The notes below the pieces were generated by a model. It saw nothing but the letters and a program-made list of their open reading frames with translations, was not told the DNA's origin and searched no databases. The position numbers were made by a program, and so were the translations under genes. 64,000 nt of DNA, taken from Polyangiales bacterium. Its GTDB lineage: Bacteria; Myxococcota_A; Polyangia; Polyangiales; Ga0077539. The DNA lies in assembly GCA_044229975.1 (NCBI GenBank), contig JBGARZ010000025.1:32001-96000 (forward strand). Direction: 5' to 3'. This document shows positions 46,322 to 52,838 of the stretch, piece by piece; position 1 is the first letter of the stretch; each line of letters starts with the position of its first letter.

Positions 46322-47872
46322 TCAATGGGAGTGTCCGTGCGCGGGAACGGCGCCGCCCGAGGCCGCGAGCTTCACCGACCACGCGCCCTGCGTGACGACG
46401 CGCTCGCCCACGCGCACCCCTTGGGTCACGGCGACGTAGCCACGATCGAAAGGGCCGAGCCGCACCGCGCGGCGCTCGAACGCCTCGCCCTCGACCTGCA
46501 CGAAGACCACGCGCTGGCTGCCGTCGTCCACGATGGCGGCGGCGGGGACGGCGACGGCCTGCGTCGGCTCATCGACCAGGATGTGGGCGGTGACGAGGGC
46601 ACCCAGCGGCAGGTGCGCGTTGGAGTTCTCGACGGCGAAGAGGGCGGTCATCGTGCGCGAGATGGGGTCGATGCGGTGGTCGCTCCCGAGGAAGGCGTCG
46701 GCCCCGAGCTCGACGGGTCGATCGGTCCCAGGTGGCTCGAACCACGCGCCGCGGAGGTTCGCGACCCGGTCCGCGTCCGCTTCGGGCACTCGTGCGTCGA
46801 GCCAGAGCCTCGTCAGATCCGCGACGTGAAAGAGCGGAGCACCTGCTTCGACGAAAGCGCCCGGCGCGACCTCGACCTCGACGAGCGTGCCGGTGAGCGG
46901 GGCGCGCACCTGGATGTTCCCCGTACCGCCGCGGTTGCGCGTCTGCTCGACGCTCTGGAACTGTGCCCGCCGACGCTCAGCCGCGGCTAGCGCAGCGCGC
47001 GCTTCCTCCTCGACGTGCGTCGCCTCGACCACCCGGTGTTCGGGGACGGCGCCCTCGGCCCGCAGGGCGTCGAGGCGGCCGCGTTCGTGGATGGCGCGCG
47101 CGAGGTCGAGACGTGCGCTGGTGGAGGCAAGGTCGATCGACGCCCGGTCCGAAGCCTCCAGCCGGGGGACGAGGAGCGCGAGCGGAGTCTCGACTGCGAC
47201 CGCTTCGCCAATGCGAGGGAACGTCGCGCCGACCCGCACCACCCGGCCCGCGGCGGGGGCCGTGACGATGACGTCGCCGTCACCCCGAGCGCGCAGCGTG
47301 CCGGTGACCGCGAGGGAAGGCCGGAAGGGACGCTCGGTCGCAGTCTCGGTTGCGAACTCCGTCTGCCACTGCTGCTCCTTGAGGAAGGAGATTCGTCCGG
47401 CGGGCTCGGGCTCGTGGGGAATGGCCCGCCGCGCTGCCTCGACGGACTCGAACACCTGCACGTCGCCGAGGTCGTGCGTGACCGTACCATCGGCCAACTG
47501 GACCTCCACGAGGAGGCGTCGCGCGCCCGCCGCGGTGGGGATCGCGACGGGGCGGAAGATGCCGGGCACCTCGGGGTGTTCGGCGAGGAAGCGCTCATCA
47601 GACGGGCCGCCACGCAGGATGACCGTCACCCGCCCGGCGCCCAGGGCGGAGAAGTCCGCGAGGCGCGTGACGTGCGCCGCGAGGGTCGAGGGGCGCCCAC
47701 GGACGAGGGCACGCAACTCGACGAAGAGCTCGGTGCGGTCGGTCCAACTCGTGAACGAGAGGGGCGGCGGTGTTGTGGCGGGCGGTTCGGCGCGCATGCC
47801 CGGCCGGTCGGAGCGAGCGCCGCAGGCAGCGAGCGCGAGACTGAGGACGAGGAGAAGGCTTCGGTCGTTCAT
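46322..47872 (-). CDS. RND periplasmic adaptor (second), with extra N-terminal domain
   Basis: LAAC lipobox, ISFLKEQQW, IDPISRT, C-terminal HGHSH. Confidence 0.88.
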   Translation of the reverse strand: MNDRSLLLVLSLALAACGARSDRPGMRAEPPATTPPPLSFTSWTDRTELFVELRALVRGRPSTLAAHVTRLADFSALGAGRVTVILRGGPSDERFLAEHPEVPGIFRPVAIPTAAGARRLLVEVQLADGTVTHDLGDVQVFESVEAARRAIPHEPEPAGRISFLKEQQWQTEFATETATERPFRPSLAVTGTLRARGDGDVIVTAPAAGRVVRVGATFPRIGEAVAVETPLALLVPRLEASDRASIDLASTSARLDLARAIHERGRLDALRAEGAVPEHRVVEATHVEEEARAALAAAERRRAQFQSVEQTRNRGGTGNIQVRAPLTGTLVEVEVAPGAFVEAGAPLFHVADLTRLWLDARVPEADADRVANLRGAWFEPPGTDRPVELGADAFLGSDHRIDPISRTMTALFAVENSNAHLPLGALVTAHILVDEPTQAVAVPAAAIVDDGSQRVVFVQVEGEAFERRAVRLGPFDRGYVAVTQGVRVGERVVTQGAWSVKLAASGGAVPAHGHSH

Positions 47873-48115
47873 GGCGCGTCCGCGGCGGTCGCGCGATCGA
47901 GCTCGACCCGCGCCCGCCGGGCGGCCTGATCGAGGTCGAGTGCGGTGAGCTCGTCGTCCCCGGCGCCGCGGTAGGCGTCGAGGAGTTCGAGCAGGGTCAT
48001 CTCGCCGCCCTGGTAGCCCGCGGTCGCGATGCGGACGAGGTCCGCCGACGCCGCCCGCGCGTCCTCGCGGAAGCGCCGGGCCGCGCGCACGAGACGAGTC
48101 GCCTCGGCGTGTAGC
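47869..48115 (-). pseudogene. 3' fragment of the TolC-family gene split by the insertion element
   Basis: LHAEATRLVRAARRF...GYQGGEMTLLELLDAYR; rejoins in frame with 51763-52838 (1317 nt, 438 aa). Confidence 0.88.
48110..48115. repeat. Target-site duplication, left copy (TGTAGC)
   Basis: Identical to 51763-51768. Confidence 0.88.
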
Positions 48116-48287
48116 TGCGCTTGTCAAACACCTACCAACAAGAAATGGCGGACGTCCGTTGGCGCGGCCTGGCGAGCGCCTTGGCGTGACCGGCTGACGC
48201 TCGGGCGCTCGTTGGTTTTGGCGTCGCAGCGATCGCCGTCGAGCCCGTCGCCGTCGGGGTCGCCCACGGTGTGCGGGCGCCTCGCCG

Positions 48288-50183
48288 TCAGTGCAGCGCC
48301 ACGACCCGATCGACGATGAATCGCACGGCGTCCGCCCGCTCGCGGGGCGTGATGCGAAACGTGGCGTGAATCCTCCGCGAGAGGTTCTCGGTCAGGCTGG
48401 CGTGTTGCGCCCGCGGCTGGGCGCGCACGGTGTCGATGAGGACGAGCAGCCAGAAGCGCCGGTCGAGCACCGCGTCGATCTCGCAGGCGCGGTCGGCGAA
48501 GGCCTTCAGGCGGTCCCCGACGACCGGGAGGATCTGCTCGATGCGCACACGCTCGGTCTGCAGCGACGCGAGCATGCGGTCGCGCTGGGCCATCCGCTCG
48601 CGGAGCAGCGCCTCGCAGATTCGTTGTCCCTCGTTCTGGGCGGCGAGGTTCCTGACGATGCCGAGCAGGTAGCGCGCGTCGGTGTCGGCAGCGATCGTTC
48701 CGGTGGCGCGCTTGCCCTCGAAGATCGCGACGCCATCGACGATCGCGTCGAGCGGATAGCGCGCGAGGGCGATGCGGAGGCTGCGCTCCGGGTCGAGCAG
48801 CGCGAGCCGCTCGAAGGACCGATCGAGGTACGCGCGCACCTCGGGATCCTGCCGCGCCTCGAGCGTCTGTCGCGCGAGCTCCTGGCGGCGGCACCGCTCC
48901 GCGAGCGCCTTGCGCGCCTCGGCGATCTGCTCCGGCGTCGGCGTCTCCCCGTGGATCGTGACGCGCGAGCGACCGTCGCGATCCTTGCGCGGACGATGAT
49001 TGATCGTGCGGAAAAAGGTCGTGAGGACCAGCCGGAGGATCGATCGTGCGAGCGAGCGCGCGTCCTCTCCCTCGACGAGCAGCGGCGGCGCGGTCTGCTG
49101 GAAGAGCCCGAATCCACCTTCGATGTGCGCCTTGTTCTGCGGCCTCTCGGGGGTCGCGCGAATGCGCTCGGCACCATCGAGCGCACGATCCACCTCAGGC
49201 GCGTGGTTGCTCGGCTTGTTGTCCAGGAGCACCGCGAGCGGCAGCGGCGGCGCGGCGCTCGTCGTCGCCCTCGCGTCCGCCATCGCGAGGGCGACGGCTT
49301 CGCTGTCCTCCTGGTCGCCGAGCGACGCGCCGACGAAGGCGCCGCTGTACGGATCGACCAGCAACTCGAGGTTGAAGACGTGGCGCGCGCCGGAGAGTTC
49401 GAGCGCAACCTGCGAGCCGTCGCCGACCCACTGCGCGTCCGGGAAGAAGACCTCGAAGGCACCGCGCAGCGCACGCTCGTCGGGCGATCGTCCCTCGCGC
49501 CGAGCCGGCGTGCGAATCCCGCGCGCGGCGAGGATGGAGCTCACCAGCGTGGGGCCGTACGGGACGCGGCAGTCGGCTTTCAAGTACGCGCAGAAGTCCG
49601 AGAAGCCGCCGCGCCAGGTCTTCCACTCCGCGAGCACGGTCTCGAGATGCGTGAGCCGCGTGGCGCTCGTGTCGTTCTCCACGTCGCGCACCGGCTCGTC
49701 GGGTGGCGCGGTGATCGCTCCGGCACGCAGCCAGTCTTCGACGGTCTCCAGCGGCACCTCCACGGCCTCCGCGAAGCGTGCGAGAGGAAGATCCTCATGC
49801 GCGGCGTGCAGCTCCAGCACGCGGTGCCGGAAGGCATCGGTGTAGTGCCGCCGCCGGTCACCCCCGACGCACCCAGGATGCTCGAAGGTGAAGCGCAGCA
49901 TCGCCCGCGAGATGGAGAGCAGCTCCTCGCACGGGCCGCCGCATGGTGCCGTCTCCGCGACCGCTGGGCGCCCCGCAGGGCGTTGCAACGACGGCAGCGA
50001 GGCCACGAGCGCGTCGCGCAACTCATACGCCCGCGAGCGCGTGGCGCCGGTGGCCGCGAGGATCTCACCGACGGACGGGTGCGCGAGCGAGACCCGCCGA
50101 GCGTGCTCGGCGGACGCAAGAAGCAGGGCGGAGATCAGGAGCGGCGAGACGGACTCGCCGGACTCTGGTAGGTCGGAGCGCAC
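48288..50183 (-). CDS. Second DDE integrase-core protein, 631 aa
   Basis: AAGGAG RBS plus GTG; HTH-like segments; QWVGDGS, LVDPYSGA, VLLDNKP, NKAHIEGGF; long helical C-terminus. Confidence 0.78.
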   Translation of the reverse strand: MRSDLPESGESVSPLLISALLLASAEHARRVSLAHPSVGEILAATGATRSRAYELRDALVASLPSLQRPAGRPAVAETAPCGGPCEELLSISRAMLRFTFEHPGCVGGDRRRHYTDAFRHRVLELHAAHEDLPLARFAEAVEVPLETVEDWLRAGAITAPPDEPVRDVENDTSATRLTHLETVLAEWKTWRGGFSDFCAYLKADCRVPYGPTLVSSILAARGIRTPARREGRSPDERALRGAFEVFFPDAQWVGDGSQVALELSGARHVFNLELLVDPYSGAFVGASLGDQEDSEAVALAMADARATTSAAPPLPLAVLLDNKPSNHAPEVDRALDGAERIRATPERPQNKAHIEGGFGLFQQTAPPLLVEGEDARSLARSILRLVLTTFFRTINHRPRKDRDGRSRVTIHGETPTPEQIAEARKALAERCRRQELARQTLEARQDPEVRAYLDRSFERLALLDPERSLRIALARYPLDAIVDGVAIFEGKRATGTIAADTDARYLLGIVRNLAAQNEGQRICEALLRERMAQRDRMLASLQTERVRIEQILPVVGDRLKAFADRACEIDAVLDRRFWLLVLIDTVRAQPRAQHASLTENLSRRIHATFRITPRERADAVRFIVDRVVALH

Positions 50184-50261
50184 GGTCTCCTTGTCTGGGT
50201 GGTGCGTTGCGGTGTCTGGAAACTTCGCAATACACGACCAGGGCGGGAGACCGCTTTCCTT

Positions 50262-51680
50262 TCAGGGGCGCAGCTCGATCAGCTTTCGGCCCATGAGCCA
50301 CACCTCGGGCACGCCGTCGCGGCTGGTGACCTTGAAGAGATCCAGCGATCGGGCGCGCAGGTCGATGCCGTCGCCGACGTCGCGCCCCGCGCCGGCTTCG
50401 ATGCGCGCGAGCACCTCGTCCACGCGGCCGTAGTAGCGGTCCGCGGGCACCAGCAGGCCGCCCAGCGCGTGGTGCGTGCGGCCGTGATTGTACCAGTGCA
50501 TGTGCGTGTCGAGCCGCCGCCGCATCTCGCCCACATCGGCGAAGCGCTGCACGTCGAACAGCTCCTTCGCGAGGTTGGCGTTGAAGACCTCGACCTTGCC
50601 GTTGTGCTCCTTGTCCACGGCGACGAGCTGGTCGATGCCGAGCTCCGTGAGCAGCGCCGTGAAGCGCGAGATGCCGTTCCACGCCCAGAACGCCGCGCCG
50701 CGGTCGTGCATCACCATCTCGGGCTTGCCGTACCGCGCGACGGCGCGCTCGAAGGTCCCGATCACCATGTCCGCGCGCTCCGCGTCGTCCACCCCGTGGC
50801 CCACGACGAAGCGCGAGTGGTCGTCGATCAGGATCAACGTGAACGTGTTCGCGCGGTGGATGTTGCGATGCACGAAATCGAGGTGCCAGAGGTGGTTCGG
50901 GCGCACGGCCTCGAAGCGTTGGATGTGCGGATGCCGCGCGACCTTCGGCGGCCGATAGCCCGCCTCCTCCATCACCCGCCGCGCCGTGTGGACGGAGACC
51001 TTCACGCTCTTGCGACGGAGCTGGTTGCGGATCTGGCTCGGCCCGAGGCCGGGGTGCCGGCTCCACTCGTCGAGGATCTCCTTGTCGCGCCGCGCCTCGA
51101 TCTCCTTGACGCCCGCACCGCTCGTCGGCGACGGGCCCTCGCCCTTCGCCGCGGCGCTGACCTTGCGCTGCCACTCGTAGATCGAGAACCGGCTCACTTT
51201 GAACTTCGTCGCCGACTCGGTGACGCTCTTCTCGGCGGCGTACTCGAGGATCTCCGCGCGCTCCGACGGCGTGTACGAACGCGCGACGGTCTTCGGCTTC
51301 GCCGCGGGCGTTGCGACGGCTTTGGCGGGGAGGCCCGTGGTGTCAGGCGACTTGTTGCCCGCCGACGACGGCGGCGCCGCCTTCGCCGACGCGGTGGACT
51401 TGCGCCGCGCGGGTGCCGCCTTCGCCTTCGCGATCACCACTGGCGGCGGCGGCGCGGCGGGCGCCGCGGGCGCCGTGGGCGTCTCGTCGCTGCTCGACGC
51501 CTTCGTGACCCCGGCAGCCTTCGCCCAGCGGAAGACGTTGGGGGCCGGAACGCCATGCTTCGCCGCCGCGGGCTTGCAGCCCAACGCCGGCACATCGGCG
51601 AGCACCACCGCGCGCTCCTCGGCTGTGTATCGCCGCCCTACGCTGCGTGGCAGCCGTTGCTCATCTCGCTTCTCGTCCAT
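50262..51680 (-). CDS. DDE transposase/integrase (rve core, IS481-like), 472 aa
   Basis: GGAGGAG RBS; two RxYTxxER HTH modules; LWHLDF, IDDHSRF, MHDRG, NGKVEVFN, YNHGRTHHAL. Confidence 0.9.
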   Translation of the reverse strand: MDEKRDEQRLPRSVGRRYTAEERAVVLADVPALGCKPAAAKHGVPAPNVFRWAKAAGVTKASSSDETPTAPAAPAAPPPPVVIAKAKAAPARRKSTASAKAAPPSSAGNKSPDTTGLPAKAVATPAAKPKTVARSYTPSERAEILEYAAEKSVTESATKFKVSRFSIYEWQRKVSAAAKGEGPSPTSGAGVKEIEARRDKEILDEWSRHPGLGPSQIRNQLRRKSVKVSVHTARRVMEEAGYRPPKVARHPHIQRFEAVRPNHLWHLDFVHRNIHRANTFTLILIDDHSRFVVGHGVDDAERADMVIGTFERAVARYGKPEMVMHDRGAAFWAWNGISRFTALLTELGIDQLVAVDKEHNGKVEVFNANLAKELFDVQRFADVGEMRRRLDTHMHWYNHGRTHHALGGLLVPADRYYGRVDEVLARIEAGAGRDVGDGIDLRARSLDLFKVTSRDGVPEVWLMGRKLIELRP

Positions 51681-51762
51681 CGTCTCCTCCAGCGATTTGA
51701 GGAGGTCTCCGAAGTCCGGAGTTTCAGGTCCTCAAACCGATGGAAGTTGTGCGGCAAGAGCA

Positions 51763-51768
51763 TGTAGC
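51763..51768. repeat. Target-site duplication, right copy (TGTAGC)
   Basis: Identical to 48110-48115. Confidence 0.88.
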
Positions 51769-52838
51769 CCCGCCACGTCGCCCGAGAGTTCGGACTCCAG
51801 CAACGCTCGTCGGCCTTCGAGCGCCCGTGCTTCGCCGCGGGCGGTGAGCGCCAGGCCCCCCGAGGTGTCCCAGAGCGGGAGGGTCAACGTGGCGCCCAGG
51901 AGGAAGCCGTCGGTGCGCCCCTGCGCTCCTGCATCGACGCCCTTCCAGCCGGCCTCCAGGCGCAGGTCGGGGAGCCACCACCGCGCCGCCGATGTGAGTT
52001 CCAGATCGGCGGCGCGGAGACGCTCTCCGACAGCGCGGAGGCGTGGACCGCGTCGCGCAACGTCTCGGAGGGTCGGGAGCGCGGTGGGCTCGTTGTCGGG
52101 CAGCAGCGACCCTTCCAGAGTGAGCCCCGTCAACTCGCCGTCGGTCAGTCCAACCAGGGCCGCGAGGCGAGCTCGGGCGCGATCGAGGGCAGCCTCCTCG
52201 ACCTGCACGCGCCCCTCCGCCACGATTCGTTCGCGCTCCAGACGGCGCCGGTCGTAGAGCGCCGTGTCCCCGCGCGCGGTGCGGCGCGCCACGATCGTCA
52301 GGGCGGCCTCGATGCGTGCGCTCCAGGCGCGCACCGCCGCCGCCCGCTCGTGGTGGTAGAGGGCCTCGTAGAAGCGCAGCCGGGTGTCGGCGGCCACCTC
52401 GACGCGCACCGCGGCGCCGTCGTGCGTCGCGGCGTTCGCTCGGCGCTCGCCGGCCGCGCCGCGGAGACCGCGACGGTTGCCGAGGTCGATGACCTGCGAG
52501 ACGGAGAGGTAGTCCTCGCCGGTCCCGAGGGCCCCGAAGGTCTGCTCGCGCAGGTAGGTGATCTGCGGGTTTGGAGAGGCTCCGAGGGTGCGAGCGCTCC
52601 CCCGCTCGGCGTCGATCGCCCCGCGGACGGTGTCCGCGAGGGGAGCCCGCGCGAGCGCTCGTCGCACCGCCTCATCGGCAGTGAGCACCGTGGCCGTTGC
52701 AGCGCGGTCCGTCCCGGGCGCCTCGGTCTGCTGCGCCCGTGCAATGGACGGCAGGAGCAGGAGGGCGGCGGTCACAAGGAACCGGCCGACGGTCGGTTTT
52801 TCGGACACGGCGAGCAGCACGACGTTTCCTCGACGCAT
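51763..52838 (-). pseudogene. 5' fragment of the TolC-family gene split by the insertion element
   Basis: Signal peptide, PNPQ, LTLPLWD; the frame reads a few codons into the element and stops at 51732. Confidence 0.88.

Follow-up and report, generated by a model that had tools for sequence, protein, structure and literature searches.

To our knowledge, the known DDE insertion sequences (ISs) use one catalytic protein for every cutting and joining step, with ATPases, truncated DNA-binding proteins or unrelated nucleases as helpers. IS3-family elements such as IS911 and IS2 make two proteins and a single catalytic domain by means of a programmed −1 frameshift. IS21 carries two co-oriented genes within one pair of ends, encoding IstA and the AAA+ ATPase IstB, and Tn7 encodes two nucleases, TnsA (with a restriction-enzyme fold) and TnsB, together with the ATPase TnsC. 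Here, we describe an element at positions 48116–51762 of a 64,000-nucleotide stretch of DNA (the window) from a Polyangiales bacterium (assembly GCA_044229975.1, contig JBGARZ010000025.1, positions 32,001–96,000). The element is 3,647 bp long with a GC content of 70% and carries on its minus strand two genes, open reading frames 1 and 2 (ORF1 and ORF2), which encode two different DDE proteins that are likely to divide transposition between them.

On the features tested, the element works like a member of the IS481/IS3 clan yet fails membership of IS481, IS3, IS21, IS1202 and Tn7. As in IS21, two co-oriented genes share one pair of ends, and the fold of ORF2 matches that of IstA among others, but the second gene encodes a DDE protein that lacks a Walker A motif. 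Like Tn7 it encodes two nucleases, but both are of the integrase type and neither a TnsC ATPase nor a target selector is present. It differs from a composite or nested IS in having no internal terminal repeats around either gene. With IS3 it shares a related catalytic core, an OrfA-type helix-turn-helix (HTH) in both proteins, two proteins per element and unequal ends, the latter accompanying a two-step pathway in IS2 according to the excerpted text of PMC3299598. It differs from IS3 in having two separate catalytic genes, 40–504 bp apart and in all three frame relations among homologues, with no conserved slippery site and no fusion protein found, and in a target duplication of 6 bp rather than 3–5 bp (PMC10045372, in part). 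With IS481 it shares an rve-type DDE core, an HTH N-terminus, TG...CA ends and the duplication, 6 bp being the commonest length for IS481 in the same portion of PMC10045372. It differs in carrying two DDE genes rather than a single transposase gene (PMC11708052, as excerpted), in its size (3.4–3.9 kb against ∼1–1.3 kb) and in its TGC tips, where IS481 ends begin 5′-TGT (10.1101/2022.12.17.520857, in the section available). Furthermore, ORF1 scores 156 bits on the IS481 model NF033577, below the cut-off of 224, and ORF2 is not matched. The same section of 10.1101/2022.12.17.520857 gives IS1202 elements as 1,320–1,990 bp long with one transposase of 400–500 residues, which sets them apart from a two-gene element of 3.4–3.9 kb. 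A reading of the window made from the sequence alone (the sequence-only reading) had called the element IS481-related; this is right as a statement of kinship, but not of membership, given the two genes, the TGC tips and the score of ORF1.

No IS with two catalytic DDE genes was found in open full-text papers; subscription journals, ISfinder and TnPedia lay outside this search, and a prior ISfinder entry is possible. The family is apparently unnamed. One paper matching the phrase 'encodes two transposases' concerns, in the part available, an ordinary 1.5 kb IS3 element (PMC7885321). New here are the asymmetry of the ends, an outward TTGACA conserved in the right end, and a hairpin that is predicted to hide the ORF2 ribosome-binding site.

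Limits and mobility of the element

The tips of the element read TGC...GCA and 17 of the first 24 positions match between its two ends. The hexamer TGTAGC is found on the plus strand on the right-end side (48110–48115) and on the left-end side (51763–51768); the target consensus of the family is S-S-T-A-S-S. Both the imperfect repeats and the duplication had been recognized in the sequence-only reading. A 17/24 inverted repeat is by itself weak evidence, and the case is carried by the copies and their duplications. The genome searched (10.0 Mb in 39 contigs, ∼71% GC) contains three full copies at 100% identity (contigs C11, C31 and C38), with duplications AGTAGG, GCTACA and GGTAGG. Five further element ends lie at contig breaks on C29 (both ends), C1 and C24, of which four are distinct (C29 left, C29 right, C1 left and C24 right). 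The ends at the termini of C29 share CGTAGC, and their joining restores a frame of 433 residues, which represents a fourth clean insertion. A perfect 6 bp TA-centred duplication is present in all four resolvable insertions of the genome; as the hexamers at the C1 and C24 ends differ, the genome contains at least five insertions and perhaps six.

In the window, excision of the element with one copy of the duplication restores a frame of 438 residues on the minus strand. Its 5′ part (51769–52838, outside the element) matches Pfam OEP (TolC family), and the frame resumes past the element in a 3′ part (47869–48115) just upstream of a gene for a CusB/HlyD-type fusion protein. An aquatic metagenome independent of this genome (run X7) yielded a 3,646 bp unitig with limits exactly at 48116–51762, and RNA runs contained just 11–16% of the query words. 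The element is real, is present in several copies and moves as one unit, as the restored tolC frame had first indicated. It has also been recently active, since identical copies disrupt the efflux gene, a CRISPR array and two other frames in this genome.

Sequence and fold of the two proteins

ORF1 (472 residues; 50262–51680, minus strand) is preceded by a ribosome-binding site, GGAGGAG (51684–51690, minus strand). The protein consists of two HTH_Tnp_1-type domains separated by a Pro/Ala linker and followed by an IS481-like rve core with the triad D268/D326/E364. Pfam detects rve with an E value of 6.6e-13 and HTH_Tnp_1, an OrfA-type HTH, as two stretches; the nearest named proteins, ISRm20 and ISEc19, are ∼29–30% identical. 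The triad residues do not vary across the 108 homologues aligned. When the core is aligned with IS481 and IS3 references, the PQxK..E loop of ORF1 is seen to be shortened. None of the viral contigs searched contained ORF1.

ORF2 (631 residues; 48288–50183, minus strand) contains an N-terminal helical/HTH region with an OrfA-like HTH (residues 109–172; match to 2jn6 with an E value of 6e-5), an integrase core (residues 242–416) and a helical C-terminal extension (residues 411–631). On its own it has almost no library match, falling below the Pfam thresholds and having no match to NF033577 and no NCBIfam family name above the cut-off. Among 72 diverse homologues, hand-picked for length, 56 match rve at E values of up to 1. 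Its triad, D255/D321/E355, aligns on the canonical positions of the IS481 and IS3 references, and ORF2 retains two further features of the IS481 core, the PQxK..E loop and the later N, so that both proteins have the complete triads claimed for them from the translations. An AlphaFold model of ORF2 has a predicted local distance difference test score (pLDDT) of 82, with low confidence in the loop preceding E355. Its fold matches include TnsB, IstA, MuA and retroviral integrases, and residues 242–416 superimpose on the simian T-lymphotropic virus (STLV) integrase with a Z score of 14.3 and an r.m.s.d. of 3.2 over 139 residues. Judged from this predicted model, ORF2 has an RNase H/retroviral-integrase fold.

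None of the 107 close homologues (107 of the best 120 listed) departs from the ORF2 triad, which is also kept in 129 of the 135 distant homologues that cover the core (25–66% identity, 149 rows); the six exceptions are short, cut-off proteins. In the 72 diverse full-length proteins the triad accounts for three of only 12 invariant columns. This conservation bears on the two options that the sequence-only reading had offered for ORF2, a partner in a two-enzyme transposase or a DDE protein repurposed for targeting or regulation. The first gains support, with the division of labour by step or by end remaining a proposal, and the second is weakened. In its fuller form the latter would make ORF1 the sole working transposase and ORF2 a required structural, targeting or regulatory partner with a triad that binds metal or DNA and does not cut. 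Inactive DDE partners are known in ciliates, and such a role would suit the long branch of ORF2, its faster evolution, its position below the Pfam thresholds in the query, the low-confidence loop before E355 and a C-terminal extension with no assigned role. It sits badly with the invariant D, D and E, as repurposed partners normally lose triad residues, and a preference for a short TA-centred hexamer needs no selector; we regard it as improbable.

The C-terminal extension comprises ∼220 residues, slightly more than the ∼200 first estimated. In the full model it matches only generic helical bundles, with Z scores of up to 8.7; folded from the single sequence it is poor (pLDDT 52), and two Atlas searches with the region gave no usable match. 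The extension contains the motif RYLLGI at residues 504–509 (window 48669–48674 region), of which Tyr505 is invariant in 72 of the 72 diverse proteins and is the sole invariant residue of the extension. A suspected likeness of RYLLGIxRN to the DnaD C-terminal motif found no support: PF07261 has no match in the genome at an E value of 10 and is absent from the 25 commonest of 66 families found for the 72 homologues.

ORF1 and ORF2 show no likeness by BLAST (E value of 1.7) and a weak one by profile comparison (75–87%), and are therefore not the product of a recent duplication. In the tree they fall in separate clades, with ORF2 on a long branch and both on the IS481 side of the split from IS3 (support 99/97). 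A Walker A motif occurs in none of 118 ORF2 frames, in agreement with the ATPase-free layout read initially, and in one of 94 ORF1 frames.

Gene pairing in the family

The candidates scored include 1,253 ORF2 homologues, and the family forms 383 clusters at 50% identity (E values of up to 1e-30). Relatives are also encoded by 375 metagenome stretches. Of 400 other genomes sampled within the phylum, 18 have ORF2, and of 201 genomes of another phylum one has it, that one being the seed genome itself; no match was found among 72,556 plasmid records. The homologous elements measure 3,372–3,946 bp (47 loci).

In 118 loci drawn by ORF2 (six from this genome, and a few duplicates), ORF1 lies directly upstream in 94, 19 leave no room for it and five were scored as lacking it. 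One of the 19 (L018) in fact carries ORF1. Of the five, L005 and L008 are fragments with stop codons, L002 is a 5′-truncated ORF2 behind another transposase gene, and ORF1 is partly still present in L112 and L106/L156. The reverse search covered 30 ORF1 loci, of which two are from this genome and eight run off or nearly off their contigs; ORF2 was found in all 16 non-self loci with a complete 3′ end and downstream room. The remainder comprised one decayed ORF1 without ORF2 and three loci of a second family described below. No intact solo copy of either gene was found in the 118 ORF2 loci and 30 ORF1 loci, and ORF2 was never found alone with its own left end. ORF1 and ORF2 form an obligate gene pair in a fixed order. 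In four loci (L014, L015, L032 and L069) an intact ORF2 follows an ORF1 cut down to its last 60–100 codons.

The distances between ORF1 proteins correlate with those between ORF2 proteins (Mantel r of 0.78 for 67 loci, with a best value of 0.26 in 999 permutations; kin are not independent). For the 25 closest of 79 pairs, the ratio of nonsynonymous to synonymous substitution rates (dN/dS) is 0.14–0.37 for ORF2 and 0.04–0.30 for ORF1, indicating purifying selection on both. A weak search among longer proteins found no ORF1–ORF2 fusion; it returned one protein in which ORF2 is joined to a peptidase S8 domain. An apparent fusion in L104 proved to be a degenerate copy that has frameshifts and has lost an internal segment.

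The dissimilarity of the two proteins by BLAST and their separate clades could suggest that two independent elements are nested or form a composite pair, or that ORF2 is a passenger. Within the query element, end-profile scores reach 1.4, compared with 14.5–53 for true ends, which agrees with the lack of internal terminal repeats noticed at the outset. Near the intergenic region of the 67 homologous loci they are at most 6.9. Together with the fixed order and spacing, the co-divergence and the absence of an intact solo gene, this largely refutes such a pair, which is now very improbable.

Intergenic region

The 78 bp gap between ORF1 and ORF2 is predicted to fold more stably than expected (z = −3.63; none of 200 shuffles equally stable) into a hairpin at 50183–50253 (minus strand). 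The 3′ arm (50183–50190) includes the GGAG ribosome-binding site, which is paired in the outer stem, and directly adjoins the GTG start codon of ORF2. A stem of at least 7 bp at this site is predicted for 38 of the 67 homologues, compared with 13% of shuffles, with paired sequences that differ between subgroups; the fold z is below −2 in 35 of 67 homologues and in four of 67 control stretches. Rfam gave no match to the hairpin region. The genes are spaced by 40–504 bp with the three frame relations in 20, 22 and 25 loci, and a slippery motif occurs in four of 67. As the distance from the hairpin to the ORF2 start is constant even when the gap is long, the hairpin probably limits the translation of ORF2 itself rather than coupling it to ORF1.

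In runs X1, X2 and X4, both genes are matched at high depth by the dominant variant. This variant does not match the intergenic stretch (window 50067–50286), which is fitted by a low-depth contig only. Divergence or recombination is thus faster in the gap than in the genes.

Terminal sequences and target preference

The ends reach ∼40–50 bp inwards and are asymmetric. The left end (IRL; 51713–51762, minus strand; consensus of 53 homologous ends) has a TGC tip, the 24 bp imperfect repeat and an inner CGGAC from position 45–46. The right end (IRR; 48116–48155, plus strand; consensus of 91 ends) is more conserved and has its CGGAC at position 34 from the tip. CGGAC is found at positions 44–46 in 49 of the 53 left ends and at 33–35 in 76 of the 91 right ends, and so lies 11–12 bp nearer the tip in IRR than in the looser IRL. 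A terminal TGC marks 44 of the 53 left ends and 90 of the 91 right ends. IRR also contains an outward-facing TTGACA, a −35-like hexamer (48122–48127, minus strand), in 88 of 91 right ends; it may serve as part of a promoter, and a promoter scan at the site found no full promoter. TA occupies the centre of the flanking hexamer in 49 of the 51 flanks on the left and in 80 of the 88 on the right. The target site of IS481, NCTAGN, resembles this.

Facing GTCAG...CTGAC motifs are located 40–90 bp inside the right end in many homologues (for example L019, L035 and L062). They repeat part of the terminal sequence, are weak in the query copy, and may act as additional binding sites or form a terminator hairpin. 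In L013 (1734–1861), just 136 bp separate the right end of one copy from the left end of another, and each end adjoins a TA-centred hexamer. The arrangement was considered as a circle junction and rejected because of this spacing; judged by a motif, the piece between the copies may be an ISAzo13-type transposase fragment.

These ends invite the idea that the two proteins act in one transpososome, with ORF1 processing one end and ORF2 the other, and with both active at every step. The offset of the inner motif by 11–12 bp (about one helical turn), the much stronger conservation of IRR, its additional GTCAG/CTGAC motifs, and the strict co-occurrence and co-divergence of the genes would all agree with this. 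However, the tips and CGGAC are common to both ends, as if one protein reads them, and a hairpin limiting ORF2 alone fits a 1:1 stoichiometry poorly. Unequal ends are also described for the single-enzyme IS2 in the excerpted text of PMC3299598. We consider a division of labour by ends unlikely.

A second family with two DDE genes

The best distant matches of ORF1 (L149–L153) are IS481-type genes, behind each of which stands a second DDE gene whose triad is intact; the loci of this second family are L149–L153, L158, L161 and L167. By profile comparison, ORF1 matches the first gene of this family best (HHalign 100%, 34% identity). In five of five loci, the DDE gene stands behind a small HTH frame that ends in an A-rich run, resembling an OrfA/OrfB frameshift pair, and on account of this run it is likely also to be made at a low level. 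The ends are ∼55 bp TGT repeats with inward GGTTGACA. The second gene occurs in ∼7 of 400 genomes of the phylum, and no target duplication was seen in the flanks of L149. The second family thus resembles the query element in combining an IS481-like first gene with a second DDE gene in one pair of ends, and differs from it in its shorter second enzyme, encoded as a frameshift pair, and in having TGT rather than TGC ends.

The second DDE protein has no detectable relation to ORF2 by profile (12%), though tree support for grouping the two exists and is weak (83/52). Each of the four protein groups is monophyletic (100/100), and approximately unbiased (AU) tests reject neither ORF1 with ORF2 (p = 0.26) nor ORF1 with the first protein of the second family (p = 0.43) as a clade (32/55 rows). 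We think it fairly probable that the two families belong to an unnamed, widespread class of IS, with at least two families, whose transposase consists of two different active DDE enzymes, each with a separate step or end and the second throttled at translation.

Proposed mechanism

ORF1 and ORF2 are quite probably both active and both needed, activity of the two enzymes being the simplest reading of their conserved triads. By analogy with the related IS3 and IS1202 families, copy-out-paste-in seems a moderately probable pathway. Our overall proposal, that ORF2 copies the element out and ORF1 pastes it in, is offered tentatively and may well need revision. The initial cut and join would fall to ORF2, which would thereby copy out the element in circular form; insertion of this circle at TA-centred sites, with a 6 bp duplication, would be the task of ORF1. 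The predicted hairpin would keep ORF2 scarce and make it the rate-limiting first enzyme; in the circle, the joined ends would place the right-end TTGACA before IRL and ORF1 and could give a burst of the integrating enzyme. A division by steps is favoured over one by ends or strands because the two steps of the relatives need different complexes, because the second enzyme looks throttled in both families and because the conserved TTGACA would face ORF1 across a circle junction; on these grounds ORF2 would serve exit and ORF1 entry. The 6 bp duplication, the commonest length in IS481, and the IS481-like character of ORF1 also speak for this proposal. In the parts of the respective papers available, the two-step pathway of IS2 needs two different synaptic complexes with unequal ends (PMC3299598), an IS911 complex is cited for the two-step transposition of relatives (PMC2909936), and circles are reported for a member of IS1202 (10.1101/2022.12.17.520857).

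Several observations weigh against this proposal. An end-to-end junction was not found in the contigs of runs X1, X2, X4 and X7, although contigs drop rare forms. The more canonical active-site loop belongs to ORF2 and not to ORF1, which could argue for the reversed assignment, and ORF2 evolves faster (median identity of 50%, compared with 74% for ORF1). A −10 hexamer in IRL would be correctly spaced from TTGACA only with a junction spacer of 0–2 bp, not 6 bp. The hairpin is weak or absent in about half of the loci, and RNAalifold found no consensus for it in 45 hand-picked loci of the 67, a result that we attribute to an alignment out of register. Finally, a perfect duplication flanks just six of the 45 homologous loci with both flanks (2% expected by chance), two of 14 with at least 300 bp on each side and none of five with at least 600 bp, and it is absent from seven of seven further genome regions with both ends, some of which repeat earlier loci. 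The majority come from short-read assemblies, in which flanks belonging to different copies of a multi-copy repeat can be joined, and this would explain the mismatches. Frequent adjacent deletions, recombination between copies or another pathway might also explain them.

Unmatched flanks could also be produced by damage at the donor site, as expected if the two proteins divided the work by strand. Tn7 is the precedent for a two-nuclease transposase, and by the same scheme one DDE protein would cut and join the 3′ ends and the other would cut the second strand in the flank, giving cut-and-paste. The two intact nuclease cores are in keeping with this. We know of no precedent for second-strand cutting by a separate DDE subunit; moreover, the nearest kin use circles, and at least five identical copies have accumulated in one genome. 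Cut-and-paste by strand is accordingly doubtful, and the copying out by ORF2 and pasting in by ORF1 is retained as the working model.

Genomic context of the insertions

The interrupted TolC/OEP gene heads an operon of the heavy-metal-efflux type, with HlyD/CusB and AcrB-family genes downstream, and the insertion may be polar on the pump. The surrounding region (window 39827–61726) is a metal-resistance-type cluster that includes a chromate transporter, hemerythrin, EamA, a BlaI/BlaR-like regulator pair and a cation diffusion facilitator, as well as two sets of resistance-nodulation-division, membrane-fusion and outer-membrane (RND/MFP/outer-membrane) genes.

The copy G000:C11:434891–438537 is inside a CRISPR array of 59 repeats, exactly on a spacer/repeat boundary; the other three of the four insertion sites show no sign of repeat targeting. 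The copy G000:C38:1030248–1033894 breaks the 3′ end of a frame that has an SDH motif, probably endonuclease/exonuclease/phosphatase-like. Contig C29 (152 kb) has the element at its start and end with the same hexamer and contains no tRNA gene; it is likely to represent a circular replicon, or else the stretch lying between two direct copies. A separate and distant single-gene IS481/ISNCY-like transposase is found in the same genome at G000:C36:223826–225436.

Biological implications

The family is large, widespread and recently active, and it is invisible to standard annotation because its ORF2 homologues are mostly annotated as 'hypothetical protein'. A standing question in IS3-type transposition is how one enzyme switches from an asymmetric, circle-forming complex to a symmetric integration complex. 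A two-enzyme element makes this question directly testable with two point mutants. If its two DDE paralogues are both active, this would be the first natural transposase so built, and excision and integration could be separately studied and used. Should integration and excision prove separable, the integrating enzyme would be a tool for one-way DNA integration at a short TA-centred target.

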